A stretch of DNA of 13,765 bases, taken from the NCBI GenBank assembly GCA_023261815.1, contig JALNKA010000022.1, forward strand, positions 1-13,765. Reading direction: 5' to 3'. The notes beneath the pieces were generated by a model. That model was not told where the DNA came from. It made no database searches and saw only the letters and a list, made by a program, of their open reading frames with translations. The DNA is from Candidatus Wolframiiraptor sinensis (lineage in GTDB: Archaea; Thermoproteota; Nitrososphaeria_A; Caldarchaeales; Wolframiiraptoraceae). Below, in pieces: positions 4,968 through 10,033 of this stretch (positions are counted from its first letter, which is position 1; each line of letters starts with the position of its first letter). Position numbers and translations under genes: made by a program.

Positions 4968-7900
4968 CTATCTGCTGACCGCCGGGGCGGCTCTGATCGC
5001 CATAACTTCCTGGTAGAGCTCCTCAAGTATCTTCTGGTAGTCCGCTTTGCCGCTTTCGACGCGATCCATGTCTGCCTCAAGCCTCCTAGTGAGCTCCTCC
5101 GAGACGTAGTCCCCAAACCTCTCTATGAGGTATCGGTATACCGCTATGCCCTTCTTGGTCGCTATGAGCCTTCCATTTCTCTCTATCGCGTAGCCGCGCT
5201 CGAGAAGCGTCTCGATTATCTTGCTGTAGGTGCTTGGCCTACCGATTCCCCTCTCCTTCATCAGCGCGACGACATCTCCCTCGGTCAGGAGCCAGGCCGA
5301 TGGAACCTTTCTCATCTCCAGCCCGCTCACCGGATACTCGCCCGCCTCGACCCTATCAGCGATCCTGATTACCGGGTAGAACTCGAGAAAGCCCTTATCC
5401 AGGAGCTTCACATCCCTGGATAACTCGACGCTGTTGTCCAGAACATCCACCGAGATCCTTTGGGTGATTACCTTGGCTGGCCTGCACTGGCTCGCGATAA
5501 ACCTCCTGAAGATCAAGTCATACATCCTGTAATGGGTCTCGGTCAGCCTAGCAGCCGGTATCGTGATTAGCCCTATCCTGACGTAGTATCGGAGCTTCTC
5601 CGCATCGAGAGGCTTGACAGGCCTAATGCACTCATGGGCGCCCTCCATCCTGTAAGCCCTAGGCGCGAACAGGCTTGGATCTATCCTGCTCAGGTACTCC
5701 CTTGCTATACTCATTCCAACCTGGGAGACCGTAGTCGCATCCGTTCTGTGATACGTTATGAGGCCGGCCTCGAAGAGCTCTTGCGCCACTCTCATCGCAT
5801 TCGCCGCCGAGAGCTTTAGATATGATGATGCATCCCTTAGAAGTGAGTCGGTCGTATATGGCGGGGGCGGGTTGATCGTAACCTCCTCCTCGCCGAGTAT
5901 CCTGACTGTTGCCTTCAGCCTTCCGGCCTCCCACTCCCTTAAAACCTCTTCAACGTTTTCCGGCTCGAGTAGGTCGATGTAGAGGTTCTCGCCGAGCCTG
6001 ACTCTGATCATCATTCTCTTCTTCCTATAATCGATCGTTCTCTCGGCTATCCATCCGAGCACCGGTGTCTGGACTCTTCCAGCCGAGAGCCACCTGCTTC
6101 CGAAGCGCTCCCAGAGCTTTCTGCTAAGCTCGAATCCTATCCACCTGTCCTCGATCCGCCGGAGGAGCTGCGCCTCGACGAGGCTTATGCTCACGCTTCT
6201 CTTATTCTGGAGAGCCGAGAGGAGAGCTCTTCTCGTAACCTCGTGGAACTCCAGCCTATGGATGTTGGGGTTGAATGGCTTGATCAGGCACATGAGGTCG
6301 TATGCTATCTTCTCGCCCTCGGCATCCGGGTCCGTCGCCAAGTAGACCTCATTATACTGCTGGGCGAGCCTCCTAATGGCCTCGATTATCTCGATCTTAT
6401 CGAATATGTCGTCCGATCCGCATGAGGGGCACGGCCTTCCATCAGCCCACTGCTCCCCGCAGTTATAGCACCTCTTTATGACTCCATAAACCGGGATGAA
6501 TCTGCCATTCATATTCTCGACGCCGTGGAGCCCTCTCTCGGAGCCGGTGATCAGGTCTGTTATGTGGCCCTGTGTCGCGGCCACGCCCACGATCATCCCG
6601 CCTATCGCCGCCTCATAGATCGTTAGAGGGCCGATTCTCCTCCTGAAGGGCCTTCCGAAGAGATAGGCGATTGTCCTGGCCTTCGTCGGGGACTCGACGA
6701 GCATGAGAGCTGCCCTAACGAGATCCTTCACCCGGATCTCGACCTCTCCTCGCTGGATCTCGCCGAGGAGTTTCCGCTCCCTATCGATTTGCTCGAATAT
6801 GAGCTCGGCCTTCTTCTCGTCGTAGGGCTCAAAGTCCAGCTCCTCTATCTGGGCCTTGAGCCTGGATATGAGCCCCCTGAAGGCCCTGGCGTCGTCGACG
6901 ACCACGATGCTCGCGCCCTTCATGATCCCGTAAGGATATAGCCTCGAAGTCCTGCCCGATGCCTGTATGTAGCCGGTCGTATCCGGTATTATCAGCGTGA
7001 AGCCATCCCCGGCCTGCTTCAATGTTATGTCAAGATCCCTCTCGATCCTCTCCAGAAGCTGCGGGCTGAGGATCTTTCCAACGAATTCTCTCGCGGATGC
7101 TATCACCTCCTGCGCGTAGCCCTCAAATCCGTCGAGCTTCATGCCCTCTTCATCCGCCCTCCTTATCTTCTCCATCACATCCTTAGTCAGCGGCGTTATC
7201 TTCCTCAGCTTCGCTATAATCGGCTCGGACTCCCTCCTCGAGCGCTCATCCAGTATCGGCATTAGGTTCAGGATGAGTATCAGGAGCTTCGCGGGATTAT
7301 ACTCGGCCTTCTCGATCCTTATCTCCCTTCTCGGGACTCCGGCGAAGACCGCATATCTTATTCTCGATGGGAGATCTATTCCGCGCGTGAAGGGGCTTCT
7401 CGAAGACGCTATCCCGACCATCACGTCTATCTCGCCGCTCGCGAACTTCTGGAGAATATCCTGGCTCATCTTCCTGTATAGGTGGACTTTTATCCCAGCT
7501 TTTTCCAAGGCCTCCGCCACATTCTCGGCATATGATCTTCCAAGGGCATGCGGGATGAACACTAGGCATCCTCCACCATGCCTTTTCACGAGCTTCACGG
7601 TTTCCTCGATCGGGCTTCCCGCGGGCTCGACATAGAGGTCCTCGACGTTTCTCACGAGCTCCTGGAATCTCCCGACCTCGAAGTCTAGGAGCTGCTCGAA
7701 TATCATCATCCGCCTCGTCCTCCTTCCCCTGAGCGTCGCCCCCGCGACCACGAGTATCCCTCTCCTCCTCTTCCTCTCCTCCTCAACCGCCCTCGAAAGC
7801 CGCTCATACTCATCGGAGAGACCCTTCGACGGCGACCTCGCCAGCTTGATCCTGACGTCTATGAGCTTGAGCGCGAGATCCACCGCCTCGGGCCTAAGCC

Positions 7901-8597
7901 CGAGAAGGCCAATAGCCTTGTCAATGTTCTTCGGGGACTTGAGAAACGAGTCCACGTCATCGACGAAGACGAAGTCGAATGGCTTTATGCCCATGAGGAG
8001 GTCTCCGTGATCGATTAGGAACCTGTCGGTTGTTATCAGGATTATCGGGCCATCGTTCTTTTTCAGAGAATTGAGAACGTTCTCCCTCTCCGCCCTGCTA
8101 AGGCCGGCATGATAGAGCAGGAGTCCATCGCTGATCCTCAGCCCAAGCCTCTCCGCGAAGGAGATGGCCTTCTCATAGAGCTGCTGGACGAGGATGCTGC
8201 TCGGGACTATCACGTAGCATCGCCTACGCCTCGCCGTGTAGAGGTATAGCGCCATTATCAGGCCTAGGACGGTCTTGCCGACGCCCGTGGGAGCCACTAT
8301 GGCGAAGTTGTCGCCCGAGATTATCCTCTTTGCCCAGACCTCCTGAAGCGCCCAGGGCTCGAAGCCCAGAGCCCTCCTGAAAAACCTCCTAAACTCCTCA
8401 TACTCCAGCTGGATTCTCAGGTACTCCTTGAGCTTCTGGAGCCTTCCGGCTTTTTTCAGCACCTCTGCCGCCTCGATGAGGCCCGCGGCCTTCCCGGGCA
8501 GGCACTTCTCGCATACCCCGACCTCGATCAGCCTAGCATCAGCTATCTCCCCGCCGCAATTGCTGCACGCGAAATTGTATATGCTCCTAATCTCCAT
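4968..8597 (-). CDS. rgy: Reverse gyrase
   Basis: 1209 aa. N-terminal Zn finger (CSNC..CEKC), helicase-like domain (APTGVGKT, DDVD, QASGRTSR), topoisomerase IA domain (ESPTKA, second Zn finger CYNC..CPSC, DPDAEGE, SAGRVQTP, catalytic ITYHRTD, GIGRPSTY). Confidence 0.99.
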   Translation of the reverse strand: MEIRSIYNFACSNCGGEIADARLIEVGVCEKCLPGKAAGLIEAAEVLKKAGRLQKLKEYLRIQLEYEEFRRFFRRALGFEPWALQEVWAKRIISGDNFAIVAPTGVGKTVLGLIMALYLYTARRRRCYVIVPSSILVQQLYEKAISFAERLGLRISDGLLLYHAGLSRAERENVLNSLKKNDGPIILITTDRFLIDHGDLLMGIKPFDFVFVDDVDSFLKSPKNIDKAIGLLGLRPEAVDLALKLIDVRIKLARSPSKGLSDEYERLSRAVEEERKRRRGILVVAGATLRGRRTRRMMIFEQLLDFEVGRFQELVRNVEDLYVEPAGSPIEETVKLVKRHGGGCLVFIPHALGRSYAENVAEALEKAGIKVHLYRKMSQDILQKFASGEIDVMVGIASSRSPFTRGIDLPSRIRYAVFAGVPRREIRIEKAEYNPAKLLILILNLMPILDERSRRESEPIIAKLRKITPLTKDVMEKIRRADEEGMKLDGFEGYAQEVIASAREFVGKILSPQLLERIERDLDITLKQAGDGFTLIIPDTTGYIQASGRTSRLYPYGIMKGASIVVVDDARAFRGLISRLKAQIEELDFEPYDEKKAELIFEQIDRERKLLGEIQRGEVEIRVKDLVRAALMLVESPTKARTIAYLFGRPFRRRIGPLTIYEAAIGGMIVGVAATQGHITDLITGSERGLHGVENMNGRFIPVYGVIKRCYNCGEQWADGRPCPSCGSDDIFDKIEIIEAIRRLAQQYNEVYLATDPDAEGEKIAYDLMCLIKPFNPNIHRLEFHEVTRRALLSALQNKRSVSISLVEAQLLRRIEDRWIGFELSRKLWERFGSRWLSAGRVQTPVLGWIAERTIDYRKKRMMIRVRLGENLYIDLLEPENVEEVLREWEAGRLKATVRILGEEEVTINPPPPYTTDSLLRDASSYLKLSAANAMRVAQELFEAGLITYHRTDATTVSQVGMSIAREYLSRIDPSLFAPRAYRMEGAHECIRPVKPLDAEKLRYYVRIGLITIPAARLTETHYRMYDLIFRRFIASQCRPAKVITQRISVDVLDNSVELSRDVKLLDKGFLEFYPVIRIADRVEAGEYPVSGLEMRKVPSAWLLTEGDVVALMKERGIGRPSTYSKIIETLLERGYAIERNGRLIATKKGIAVYRYLIERFGDYVSEELTRRLEADMDRVESGKADYQKILEELYQEVMAIRAAPAVSR

Positions 8598-8717
8598 CCA
8601 AGCAGAAGATCCCTAAGCAATACTAAAAACCATTCCCTCGCGAGCGCCTTATCGCTAGATTTTTAAGCACCCTGGCACTTTTATTCTCCTGAGGTTCCCG
8701 GAAGGGTAAAGCTAAAT

Positions 8718-8776
8718 CCCGATGATGAGAATGACCTGCACGGATGCTAGATGAGGAGCATGCGCCTCTCTGAGGG
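8718..8776 (+). ncRNA. Box C/D 2'-O-methylation guide sRNA
   Basis: ccc-g-ATGATGA (C, 8722-8728), 12-nt guide, CGGA (D', 8741-8744), tgctag, ATGAGGA (C', 8751-8757), 12-nt guide, CTGA (D, 8770-8773), ggg. Canonical archaeal spacing with a CCC/GGG terminal stem. Confidence 0.9.
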
Positions 8777-8798
8777 GGCTTCTGGAGGCCGCTTTAAG

Positions 8799-9065
8799 GT
8801 GAGGATCAGGATCTTCGGGCCGCTTAGGGAGGTCTCGAGAGAGGATTTTTTCGAGGTTGATGCCGGCGAGAATGAGAGTCTCATAGACGTCTTGAGAAGG
8901 CTTCCAGAGCCCCTCCGGGAAAGGATCTTAGAGAATGGGGAGATTTCCCCCGAGCTCCTCGTTCTGATCGATGGCGTCGAGATCTCCTGCCTCGGCAAGC
9001 CGGATGAGATATCTCTTAAGGATGTTAGGGAGATACACATGGTGCCCGTGATTCATGGAGGCTGA
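8799..9065 (+). CDS. Ubiquitin-like beta-grasp protein (MoaD/ThiS/Urm1-SAMP family)
   Basis: RIRIFGPLRE...LVLIDG.EI...VPVIHGG-stop with a C-terminal diglycine. The start was moved from 8751 (the C' box of the sRNA) to the in-frame GTG 8799, which has GGAGG at 8784-8788. Confidence 0.9.
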   Translation: MRIRIFGPLREVSREDFFEVDAGENESLIDVLRRLPEPLRERILENGEISPELLVLIDGVEISCLGKPDEISLKDVREIHMVPVIHGG

Positions 9066-9073
9066 GATACAAT

Positions 9074-9640
9074 TTGAGGCTCATGAATTTCGGGGACAAG
9101 TGGGCCGCCGCATCCGTTCTGAAAAATCCTAGGAGAAGCTTTCTAGCCGATCCCGTTAAGATCCTAGATGCTCTTAGAGCCGCGAATAGGGGCGCGGTTA
9201 TACAGGCATTTGATGCCAAATGCGTCGCATCCGTTAGGCAGATTCACGCGGCGGCCGTCGCCGCCCACCTGGCCTTCAAGGCCGGAACAAATATCTCGAA
9301 GAAGATGGAGATGGAGCTTCTGCTCAGGCTCGCCGCGGATACCCAGATATGGAGAGCTCTCGATAGGCTCGGCGTGAGGGCGGACACAGAGGAGGTTGGC
9401 CTCTGCGTCCTCGCCGATGATAGAGCCTCGGCCGCGAGAATTGCGGAGGAACTTGCTAGAGCGGTGGGCGGCGTGGAGGTTGATGATGATTATCTCATGA
9501 GAAGCGAGAGGCTTGCTAAGGCCGCCGAATTCTACAGCATAGAGGAGGCGGAGATCGAGTCCGTTCAAGCGAGCAGTAGAGCTGAGGCGATATTCATCCT
9601 AATATTGGAGAGGATCGCTACCTTGGACCTCAGAAGATGA
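9074..9640 (+). CDS. cgi121: KEOPS complex subunit Cgi121
   Basis: IQAFDA..VAS..QI..A...A..AF..G.NIS....MELLLRLAA..QI..AL..LG and C-terminal LERIA.L match Cgi121/TPRKB. Start is TTG 9074 or ATG 9083. Confidence 0.9.
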   Translation: MRLMNFGDKWAAASVLKNPRRSFLADPVKILDALRAANRGAVIQAFDAKCVASVRQIHAAAVAAHLAFKAGTNISKKMEMELLLRLAADTQIWRALDRLGVRADTEEVGLCVLADDRASAARIAEELARAVGGVEVDDDYLMRSERLAKAAEFYSIEEAEIESVQASSRAEAIFILILERIATLDLRR

Positions 9641-10033
9641 GCGGGCGGCGAGCCTCGCGATCTTATCAGCCTCATAATTCTCACCTCTCTCAACATGCGT
9701 TACAACGAATTTCTCGAGGTTCCTGGCTAGGCTCATGAGCTCCGCGTATAGCGGCGATAGTCTGCTACTTTTAACAGAGTACTCCCCTTTAATCTGCTTA
9801 ACGAGGATCTCACTATCGGAGAAGAGCTCGACCTCGGATGCGCCTAGGGTCAGCGCCTCTCTCAAGGCCTCTATCGCCGCCAGATACTCCGCTTCATTAT
9901 TAGTCCTGATCCCGACATATCTCCCCCTACTGGAGATCAGCGTACCGCTTTCGTCGAATATCAGGTAGCCTATGCCGGCCGGTCCAGGGTTACCCTTAGA
10001 GCAGCCATCCGAGAATATCCTCAGCCTTCTCAA
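9599..10033 (-). CDS. rnhA: Ribonuclease HI family protein
   Basis: FSDGCSKGNPGPAG, TNNEAEY.A, SDSE.LV.Q..G.Y and HV.R..N..AD; all four acidic catalytic residues are present. Confidence 0.95.
   Translation of the reverse strand: MRRLRIFSDGCSKGNPGPAGIGYLIFDESGTLISSRGRYVGIRTNNEAEYLAAIEALREALTLGASEVELFSDSEILVKQIKGEYSVKSSRLSPLYAELMSLARNLEKFVVTHVERGENYEADKIARLAARSSSEVQGSDPLQY

Follow-up and report, generated by a model that had tools for sequence, protein, structure and literature searches.

What is encoded at positions 8718-8776 of the forward strand of this DNA, and on what would its product act? The stretch analysed, called the window below, comprises 13,765 nucleotides (nt) of contig JALNKA010000022.1 of Candidatus Wolframiiraptor sinensis. 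A preliminary description, prepared from the letters alone, had read the 59-nt element as a box C/D small RNA (sRNA) whose two guides are directed at both strands of helix 34 of the 16S ribosomal RNA (rRNA). The layout of the element, its alignment to generic models and the comparison with relatives agree on the first part of this reading, and the element is almost certainly a box C/D sRNA. The explanation that it is a canonical archaeal C/D sRNA using both guides on helix 34 is considered highly probable. All four boxes and both 12-nt guides were found exactly where they had been placed. The parts of the element are the following, N+5 denoting the target nucleotide opposite the fifth guide base upstream of the box.

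8718-8776, + strand: box C/D sRNA gene, 59 nt, recognised by its boxes, spacers and stem; generic C/D covariance models align to exactly these bounds
8718-8720, + strand: 5' half of the terminal stem, CCC, followed by one G; pairs with GGG at 8774-8776
8722-8728, + strand: C box ATGATGA, invariant in 22/22 aligned homologues
8729-8740, + strand: D' guide GAATGACCTGCA, 12 nt; positions 2-9 from the D' box pair with 16S 1156-1163, N+5 being G1159
8741-8744, + strand: D' box CGGA, a variant of CUGA, read in the sequence and in the alignment of 22 homologues
8745-8750, + strand: variable loop TGCTAG, 6 nt; its TAG is an in-frame stop directly before ATG 8751
8751-8757, + strand: C' box ATGAGGA, whose ATG is the first start codon of the listed open reading frame (ORF) 8751-9065
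8758-8769, + strand: D guide GCATGCGCCTCT, 12 nt; positions 1-11 pair with 16S 1004-1014, N+5 being G1008
8770-8773, + strand: D box CTGA, invariant in 22/22 homologues
8774-8776, + strand: 3' half of the terminal stem, GGG; pairs with CCC at 8718-8720

The arrangement corresponds to that of archaeal C/D sRNAs. A C box of the form RUGAUGA stands near the 5' end and a D box CUGA near the 3' end, while the internal D' and C' boxes, each one base off the consensus, are separated by a loop of 6 nt. Archaeal guides between C and D' and between C' and D are 10-12 nt long (PMC7994747), and both spacers of the present element measure 12 nt. The CCC/GGG stem closes the C/D kink-turn (k-turn) and shows compensatory changes among homologues. 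Both guides reach the duplex of at least 8-9 base pairs (bp) with rRNA or transfer RNA (tRNA), with a Watson-Crick pair at N+5, that is expected of such an RNA; this complementarity is non-significant in a single genome and is supported by the orthologues. The proteins needed for assembly are encoded in the organism's own genome, which was searched as an assembly of 1.18 Mb in 33 contigs: fibrillarin (E 3.2e-94), Nop5 (E 1.2e-70) and the L7Ae family (E 8.2e-31), the last with two members.

Two generic archaeal C/D models, applied with an E-value threshold, align end to end over 8718-8776: snoPyro_CD (RF00095) with 24.6 bits (cut-off 45; E 0.0036) and Pyrococcus sR17 (RF01144) with 23.4 bits (cut-off 36). 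The element thus has their architecture and length, but its scores stay below gathering, and the likeness lies in the boxes and not in the guides. The strict pattern of boxes, spacers and stem occurs at five sites of the genome, 8718-8776 among them, and at none in the reversed genome. The other four are further canonical C/D candidates, all on the minus strand (C22:3788-3835, C24:5122-5174, C4:49682-49731 and C4:9625-9676). Across the whole genome the snoPyro_CD model gives 14 sub-threshold matches, of which 8718-8776 ranks fourth; the remainder provide additional C/D sRNA candidates.

To locate the targets, both guides were compared without gaps with the organism's own 16S and 23S rRNA, and the two complementary stretches that the preliminary description had named are both present in this 16S. 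The D guide pairs without interruption at 11 positions (9 Watson-Crick, 2 G-U) with 16S 1004-1014, GGAGGTGCATG, where 10 pairs with one G-U had been expected, and this is its best site in rRNA. The duplex energy is -19.3 kcal/mol, against -16.0 kcal/mol for the best 23S sites. The fifth base upstream of box D forms a C-G pair with G1008, directly 5' of TGCATGG, which is the nucleotide that had been predicted. The D' guide matches 16S 1156-1163, GCAGGTCA, through 8 contiguous Watson-Crick pairs, and its fifth base pairs, again as C-G, with G1159, the first G of AGGTC, so that both the length and the position foreseen for this duplex were recovered. Among the 16S, the 23S and 32 tRNAs, an exact GCAGGTCA is found at the helix-34 site only. 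G1008 and G1159 are separated by 151 nt in the 16S, and co-folding of the two 16S segments pairs 1007-1023 with 1149-1172. As regards E. coli numbering, the labels 1051 and 1197 of the two alignment columns are partly ones that we take as given. In the alignment of archaeal and E. coli 16S in the supplement of PMC4644070, G1008 is aligned with E. coli C1051 and G1159 with A1197. The co-folding and the aligned columns therefore agree with the earlier placement of two sites, about 150 nt apart, on opposite strands of helix 34; distant sites on the two strands of one helix are the mark of opposite-strand double-guide sRNAs. The D guide very probably directs methylation of G1008, and the D' guide probably acts on G1159 in this organism.

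Comparison with relatives is what carries this interpretation. A 141-nt BLAST query around the element gave matches in 17 of 40 relatives at E <= 7e-7. Thirteen of the 17 cover the sRNA only, beginning at query positions 28-32 and ending at 84-98, where query 29-87 corresponds to 8718-8776; conservation therefore stops at the sRNA borders. The strict two-guide pattern is present in 23 of the 76 genomes of the order, all of them in the window's family, and in none of the reversed controls. By genus, it was found in 12/13 genomes of g1, 3/3 of g2, 3/3 of g4 and 4/8 of g5. When the pattern was relaxed, the count rose to 28/76, with two more genomes of g5 and three of the four genomes of family f3.

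In an alignment of 22 homologous sequences all four boxes are conserved, and the loop, 3-7 nt long, has no invariant column. Invariant positions number 9/12 in the D' guide and 7/12 in the D guide; the 9-nt core of the D' guide, ATGACCTGC, is the same in 22/22 homologues. The D guide base opposite U1009 is G in the window and A in most homologues; in genus g5 a C or U stands at position 12 of this guide and extends the duplex by one pair, to G1015. The variation of the guides therefore fits the helix-34 targets. By our own reading of the alignment, the 13-nt D' guide of one homologue (G006) lengthens the pairing with the same 16S stretch. In the terminal stem, 84.3% of the cells are paired and three of four pairs have changed on both sides (CCC/GGG, CUC/GAG, CAA/UUG), with a covariation score that was reached by 0/500 shuffles. 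Both helix-34 target stretches are identical in 7/7 relatives whose assembled 16S covers the region. The second base of the D' box and the fifth base of the C' box (alignment columns 27 and 41) are G-G in 18 sequences, A-A in three and G-A in one. This position of the D'/C' kink-loop (k-loop), where the standard C'/D' motif has U opposite U, thus shows a purine-purine co-variation.

The sRNA also extends beyond the family. Of 401 genomes sampled from the phylum, 43 have a pattern of C' box, D guide and D box; a control pattern gave two hits. Of 25 of these loci that were inspected, 20 carry a D' guide of the GACCTG type: 15/15 in family f10, 1/1 in f40, 2/2 in f3 and 2/2 in genus g5. The five loci without it belong to families f44, f33 (twice), f15 and f19. 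Since the window's class holds the same 76 genomes as its order, family f10 lies outside that class, and the predicted sRNA family is conserved in at least two classes of Thermoproteota. In one member of f10 (G110), each guide forms an unbroken duplex of 11 bp (10 Watson-Crick, 1 G-U) with a strand of that genome's own helix 34, and these are the best sites of the locus; its D' guide has a C where the window's family carries a mismatched A. This pairing is the strongest evidence that the D' guide of the sRNA family addresses the 3' strand of helix 34. In a genome of f3 (G032), the D' guide's match to helix 34 has decayed and falls outside the three best D' sites.

Several observations weigh against a canonical C/D sRNA with both guides on helix 34. 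Throughout the window, every Rfam family stays below its gathering score, the best score being 24.6 bits against 45. The complementarity itself does not exceed chance in the organism's own genome, as an equally good rRNA site was found by 763 of 5000 shuffled D guides and by 1677 of 5000 shuffled D' guides. The D' duplex comprises no more than 8 bp, and at guide position 10 an A-G mismatch is invariant. Its 23S sites at 2122 and 3524 have energies of -14.4 and -14.3 kcal/mol, compared with -15.2 kcal/mol in helix 34. The site at 2122 (7 Watson-Crick pairs and one G-U) is conserved in 4/4 relatives and lies 36 nt from a weaker site of the D guide at 2086 (11 pairs, one mismatch). Within the same family, the two-guide pattern is lacking in all seven genomes of genus g3, though two of them have the same helix-34 sequence. 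Finally, RNA contigs from two metatranscriptome runs of one study cover the sRNA from 8746 only, yet contigs can show neither RNA ends nor small RNAs and are uninformative on an RNA of ~60 nt. In view of the shuffle control, complementarity within a single genome was dropped as proof, and the support is comparative: that the element is more than a chance array rests on the comparison with relatives, and the assignment of the D' guide to helix 34 rests mainly on the homologues of another class that pair over 11 bp.

The alternative that follows most directly from these observations is that the sRNA is real and only its D guide works on helix 34, the D' guide being a remnant or acting elsewhere, for instance near 23S 2126. 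This is considered unlikely; in that case the RNA would not clamp the two helix-34 strands together in this organism. In its favour, a duplex of 8 bp stands at the lower limit used in PMC6009581, the frequency of equally good shuffled D' guides is high, and the conserved 23S site at 2122 is close to a D-guide site and within 1 kcal/mol of the helix-34 energy. The decayed match in G032 points the same way, and yeast snR40 provides an example of one guide serving several sites (PMC4344503). However, the invariance of the 9-nt core in 22/22 homologues argues against decay of the D' guide. The orthologous guide in f10 pairs over 11 bp with helix 34, and the stable RNAs contain no exact 8-mer match besides that in helix 34. 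When the search is confined to the region of the helix-34 3' strand, a region chosen after the D target had been seen, only 39 of 20000 shuffled D' guides reach the observed score. The 23S site of the D guide is, moreover, weaker than its helix-34 site by 3.3 kcal/mol.

Other targets proposed for the D' guide were rejected. A site at 16S 247 (9 bp, 2 G-U) is broken by a 1-nt insertion in G013, G014, G016 and G021, all of which keep the guide. A site at 23S 2742 is located in an insert that has no counterpart in the 23S of four relatives, and the site at 23S 3524 is weakened by a G-to-A change in G016 and G021, which represent two genera. A target with U opposite the invariant A of D' position 10 would read GCAGGTCAT. 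This sequence occurs 12 times in the genome, one occurrence being the reverse strand of the guide itself, and all 12 lie outside the rRNA and tRNA genes and more than 100 nt away from them. In the 23S, the segments 2086-2097 and 2122-2133 with their matches to D and D', conserved in relatives, constitute a possible secondary double-guide target. The 23S gene of this organism (C28:51900-55761) spans 3862 nt for a model of 2987 positions and includes the stretch near 2742 that is without counterpart in four relatives, and the 16S genes of two relatives exceed a model of 1478 positions, with 1976 nt in G002 and 1668 nt in G009. These over-long spans resemble rRNA introns, or inserts, varying from one close species to the next.

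If both guides act on helix 34, the sequence of events would be that of other archaeal C/D sRNAs. An RNA of ~60 nt would be expressed, and, judging from its class, it would bind L7Ae at the C/D k-turn and at the C'/D' k-loop. Nop5 and fibrillarin would then be recruited, and both 12-nt guides would act on the nascent 16S. The D guide would direct 2'-O-methylation of G1008 in the 5' strand of helix 34 (the E. coli 1051 column), and the D' guide would direct methylation of, or at least engage, G1159 in the 3' strand (the 1197 column). The sites are 151 nt from each other, on strands that pair with one another later; a single sRNA-protein particle (sRNP) could for this reason keep hold of both while the 3' major domain folds, in line with a published model. 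Such a chaperone role is a tentative proposal and, on the present analysis, rather doubtful.

That model was formulated for Nanoarchaeum equitans, in which double-guide sRNAs hit opposite strands of one 16S helix, sR17 in helix 28 and sR15 in helix 30, and were proposed to act as folding chaperones (PMC4644070). The window's sRNA has the same opposite-strand double guide and falls under the same chaperone model, but its target is helix 34, its lineage is Caldarchaeales, and its arrangement is conserved across families and classes. No helix-34 pair like the present one was found in the 15 rows of Table 3 of that article. Guides complementary to the same two helix-34 stretches are described for Pyrobaculum, where the D' guide of sR49 targets 16S G1009 and its D guide C1034, and where the D guide of sR23 targets C1161 and its D' guide U1201 (PMC6009581). 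The guide of Pae sR49 has the same G-U wobble as that of the window. In Pyrobaculum, however, two separate sRNAs are involved, each combining the helix-34 guide with a site 25-40 nt away, whereas the window has one sRNA for both. Read from the guides as printed there, the N+5 nucleotides are shifted by 1 nt in the 5' strand and by 2 nt in the 3' strand. The box variants and the genomic context differ as well. The window's sRNA does not combine the partner guides and N+5 nucleotides of sR49 or sR23, as a member of either family would.

The comparison with eukaryotes holds at the level of the helix. The preliminary description had equated G1008 with the yeast nucleotide Gm1271 and had taken G1159 as possibly equivalent to Gm1428, a correspondence that stays an assumption. 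In yeast, Gm1271 (snR40; human Gm1328) and Gm1428 (snR56; human Gm1490) are sites in helix 34 and have plant equivalents (PMC2794176). The guanosines in question share with those of the window a position in helix 34 near the decoding centre; they are served by two separate small nucleolar RNAs (snoRNAs) in eukaryotes, and by one sRNA here. Table 2 of a plant review (PMC11542601) gives no Pyrococcus abyssi equivalent for Gm1271 or Gm1428, and no E. coli equivalents were found in the literature searched. Eukaryotic snoRNA families are absent from the 13 Rfam matches obtained at E <= 10. If the two sites prove to be the exact counterparts of the eukaryotic helix-34 Gm sites, the sRNA would be a candidate archaeal counterpart of two snoRNA guides. 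A search for literature on C/D sRNAs of Caldarchaeales or Aigarchaeota returned none, the one article touching on both Aigarchaeota and box sRNAs being a general review; within the literature searched, this would be the first sRNA described for Caldarchaeales (former Aigarchaeota). The element adds a new member, unnamed and deeply conserved, to the box C/D class and is not a new kind of system, and its two-strand targeting of helix 34 is a new instance of a published arrangement. Archaeal guide RNAs are described in surveys as fast evolving. One RNA predicted to serve both strands of helix 34, in the decoding region, and kept in at least two classes at one genomic address would represent an unusually deep conservation for an archaeal guide.

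How the sRNA is expressed has to be considered together with its genomic surroundings, the elements of which are listed here.

8799-9065, + strand: small ubiquitin-like protein ending in GG; weak Urm1 match of 17.2 bits (cut-off 21.8; E 0.0069)
9074-9640, + strand: Cgi121 (KEOPS subunit); Pfam CGI-121, E 3.1e-14
4968-8597, - strand: reverse gyrase, the divergent upstream neighbour; Pfam Topoisom_bac, Toprim, DEAD and zf_Rg
8679-8685, + strand: TATA-like TTTTATT, read in the sequence as a candidate promoter of the sRNA
8708-8717, + strand: A/T-rich element AAAGCTAAAT abutting the sRNA's 5' end, present at the same place in most homologues
8785-8789, + strand: GGAGG, the likely Shine-Dalgarno sequence of GTG 8799, nine bases before it
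9599-10033, - strand: RNase H-like gene (Pfam RVT_3, RNase_H), converging on cgi121 with an overlap of ~40 nt at its 3' end

The gene cgi121 lies downstream of the sRNA in 17 of 20 loci of the family. Among the 25 loci of further lineages, 18 have rps17e upstream and 18 have cgi121 downstream; this address is held in distant lineages and is therefore ancient. Reverse gyrase adjoins the sRNA in 5/20 loci, those of the closest relatives only, and from this gene order its adjacency is judged to be recent. In genera g2 and g4, the upstream gene, identified by eye, encodes a protein similar to ribosomal protein S17e, and its stop codon lies within a TTAAATA box that ends ~24 nt before the sRNA's 5' end. 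About 24 nt is a normal distance between TATA box and start in archaeal promoters. The A/T-rich element at 8708-8717, which takes the form TTTTTAT or AAGAATAAA in homologues, is too close to be the TATA box of the sRNA itself; it could be a promoter-proximal element, or the TATA box of a transcript starting inside the sRNA. Many lineages of the phylum have an ORF start 8-32 nt downstream of the D box, and the sRNA is therefore most simply seen as the 5' leader of that message. It would most likely be transcribed from its own TATA box as the leader of the pair formed by the Urm1-like gene and cgi121, with which it would be co-transcribed. The RNA contigs cover 8300-8547, 8746-9089 and 9285-9700, and not 8548-8745, where DNA runs continue; the contig 8746-9089 bridges the 3' half of the sRNA and the small ORF. 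The pair of Urm1-like gene and cgi121 is conserved across the family, and both Urm1 and the KEOPS subunit relate to tRNA modification pathways in other organisms.

The leader position raises the question of where the Urm1-like ORF begins. In the ORF list, an ORF of 104 amino acids starts at the C'-box ATG 8751, and the preliminary description had held that the ORF track hides the sRNA in this way. Because GGAGG at 8785-8789 precedes GTG 8799, a start that gives a typical beta-grasp N-terminus, the start at 8751 is a probable over-extension and the earlier statement is probably right for the window; the in-frame ATG of the relatives nevertheless leaves a real overlap possible. The C'-box ATG is in frame with the ORF and free of stops in 15/18 homologues of the family (g1 12/12 scorable, g4 3/3, g2 0/3). 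A real coding overlap of sRNA and Urm1-like ORF is possible but unproven. For annotation, gene callers will tend to extend the neighbouring small ORF into the sRNA.

On these grounds the locus could be credited with two jobs. The C' box, D guide and D box would double as the opening nine codons of the Urm1-like gene or as its immediate leader, and L7Ae binding and sRNP assembly would compete with the translation of the Urm1-like protein and Cgi121. This explanation is compatible with the action of both guides on helix 34. A bifunctional leader of this kind, in which the 3' half of the sRNA also supplies the start codon or immediate 5' end of the Urm1-like/Cgi121 message, is judged improbable, and the proposed competition no less so. 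Besides the frame kept in g1 and g4, it accords with the distances from the C'-box ATG to the downstream start (33, 42, 45, 48 and 51 nt), all five of which are multiples of three. It also accords with three members of g1 (G008, G012 and G006) in which the stretch from the sRNA to the first beta strand lacks ATG, GTG and TTG alike, so that the two ATGs inside the sRNA are their only canonical starts. The short distance of 8-32 nt between D box and ORF across the phylum, which leaves no room for a separate promoter, and the RNA contig joining the 3' half of the sRNA to the ORF can be read in the same sense. In Sulfolobus, L7Ae represses translation through k-turns located in 5' untranslated regions or just after start codons (PMC5539422). 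On the other side, a purine-rich stretch with a GTG or ATG stands at the expected protein start in 9/12 loci of g1, the window included, and the frame is not maintained elsewhere (g2 0/3, f3 0/2, g5 1/4 and, among loci with an ORF, f10 1/4). By our count, the linker has 3, 5 and 6 variable sites at codon positions 1, 2 and 3 among the five closest relatives, without third-position excess, and the fold of the leader is not unusual (z 0.37). Sense overlaps at the 5' end of genes in Pyrobaculum usually destroy the guide function (PMC6009581), whereas the overlapping guide of the window's sRNA is intact and keeps a fully functional predicted rRNA target. If the two jobs were real, each transcript would serve either as a helix-34 guide or as the message for two proteins related to tRNA modification, and L7Ae binding would decide between these fates. 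A cis hairpin between the D guide and the downstream GGAGG was rejected as a regulator, because the leader folds like its shuffles, with the same z of 0.37 (sRNA alone, z 0.00).

The weakest explanation, that there is no sRNA and that the stretch merely leads into the small ORF or encodes its N-terminus, with boxes arisen by chance, draws on the listed start at 8751 and on the lack of a gathering-level Rfam match, but it is extremely improbable in view of conservation that ends at the sRNA borders, a terminal stem that covaries, boxes and guides that stay invariant while the frame relative to the ORF shifts between lineages, an element kept across two classes with 11-bp matches to 16S, and a box pattern with 0 hits in the reversed genome.

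Regarding the divergent neighbour, the reverse gyrase of the window shares 87% identity with its counterparts in Candidatus Wolframiiraptor allenii and W. gerlachensis, and the organism is accordingly a thermophilic member of Caldarchaeales. A minus-strand A/T-rich box (complement of 8620-8630) lies ~28 nt upstream of its ATG at 8597, which suggests that the reverse gyrase message may be leaderless and the divergent promoter region compact.

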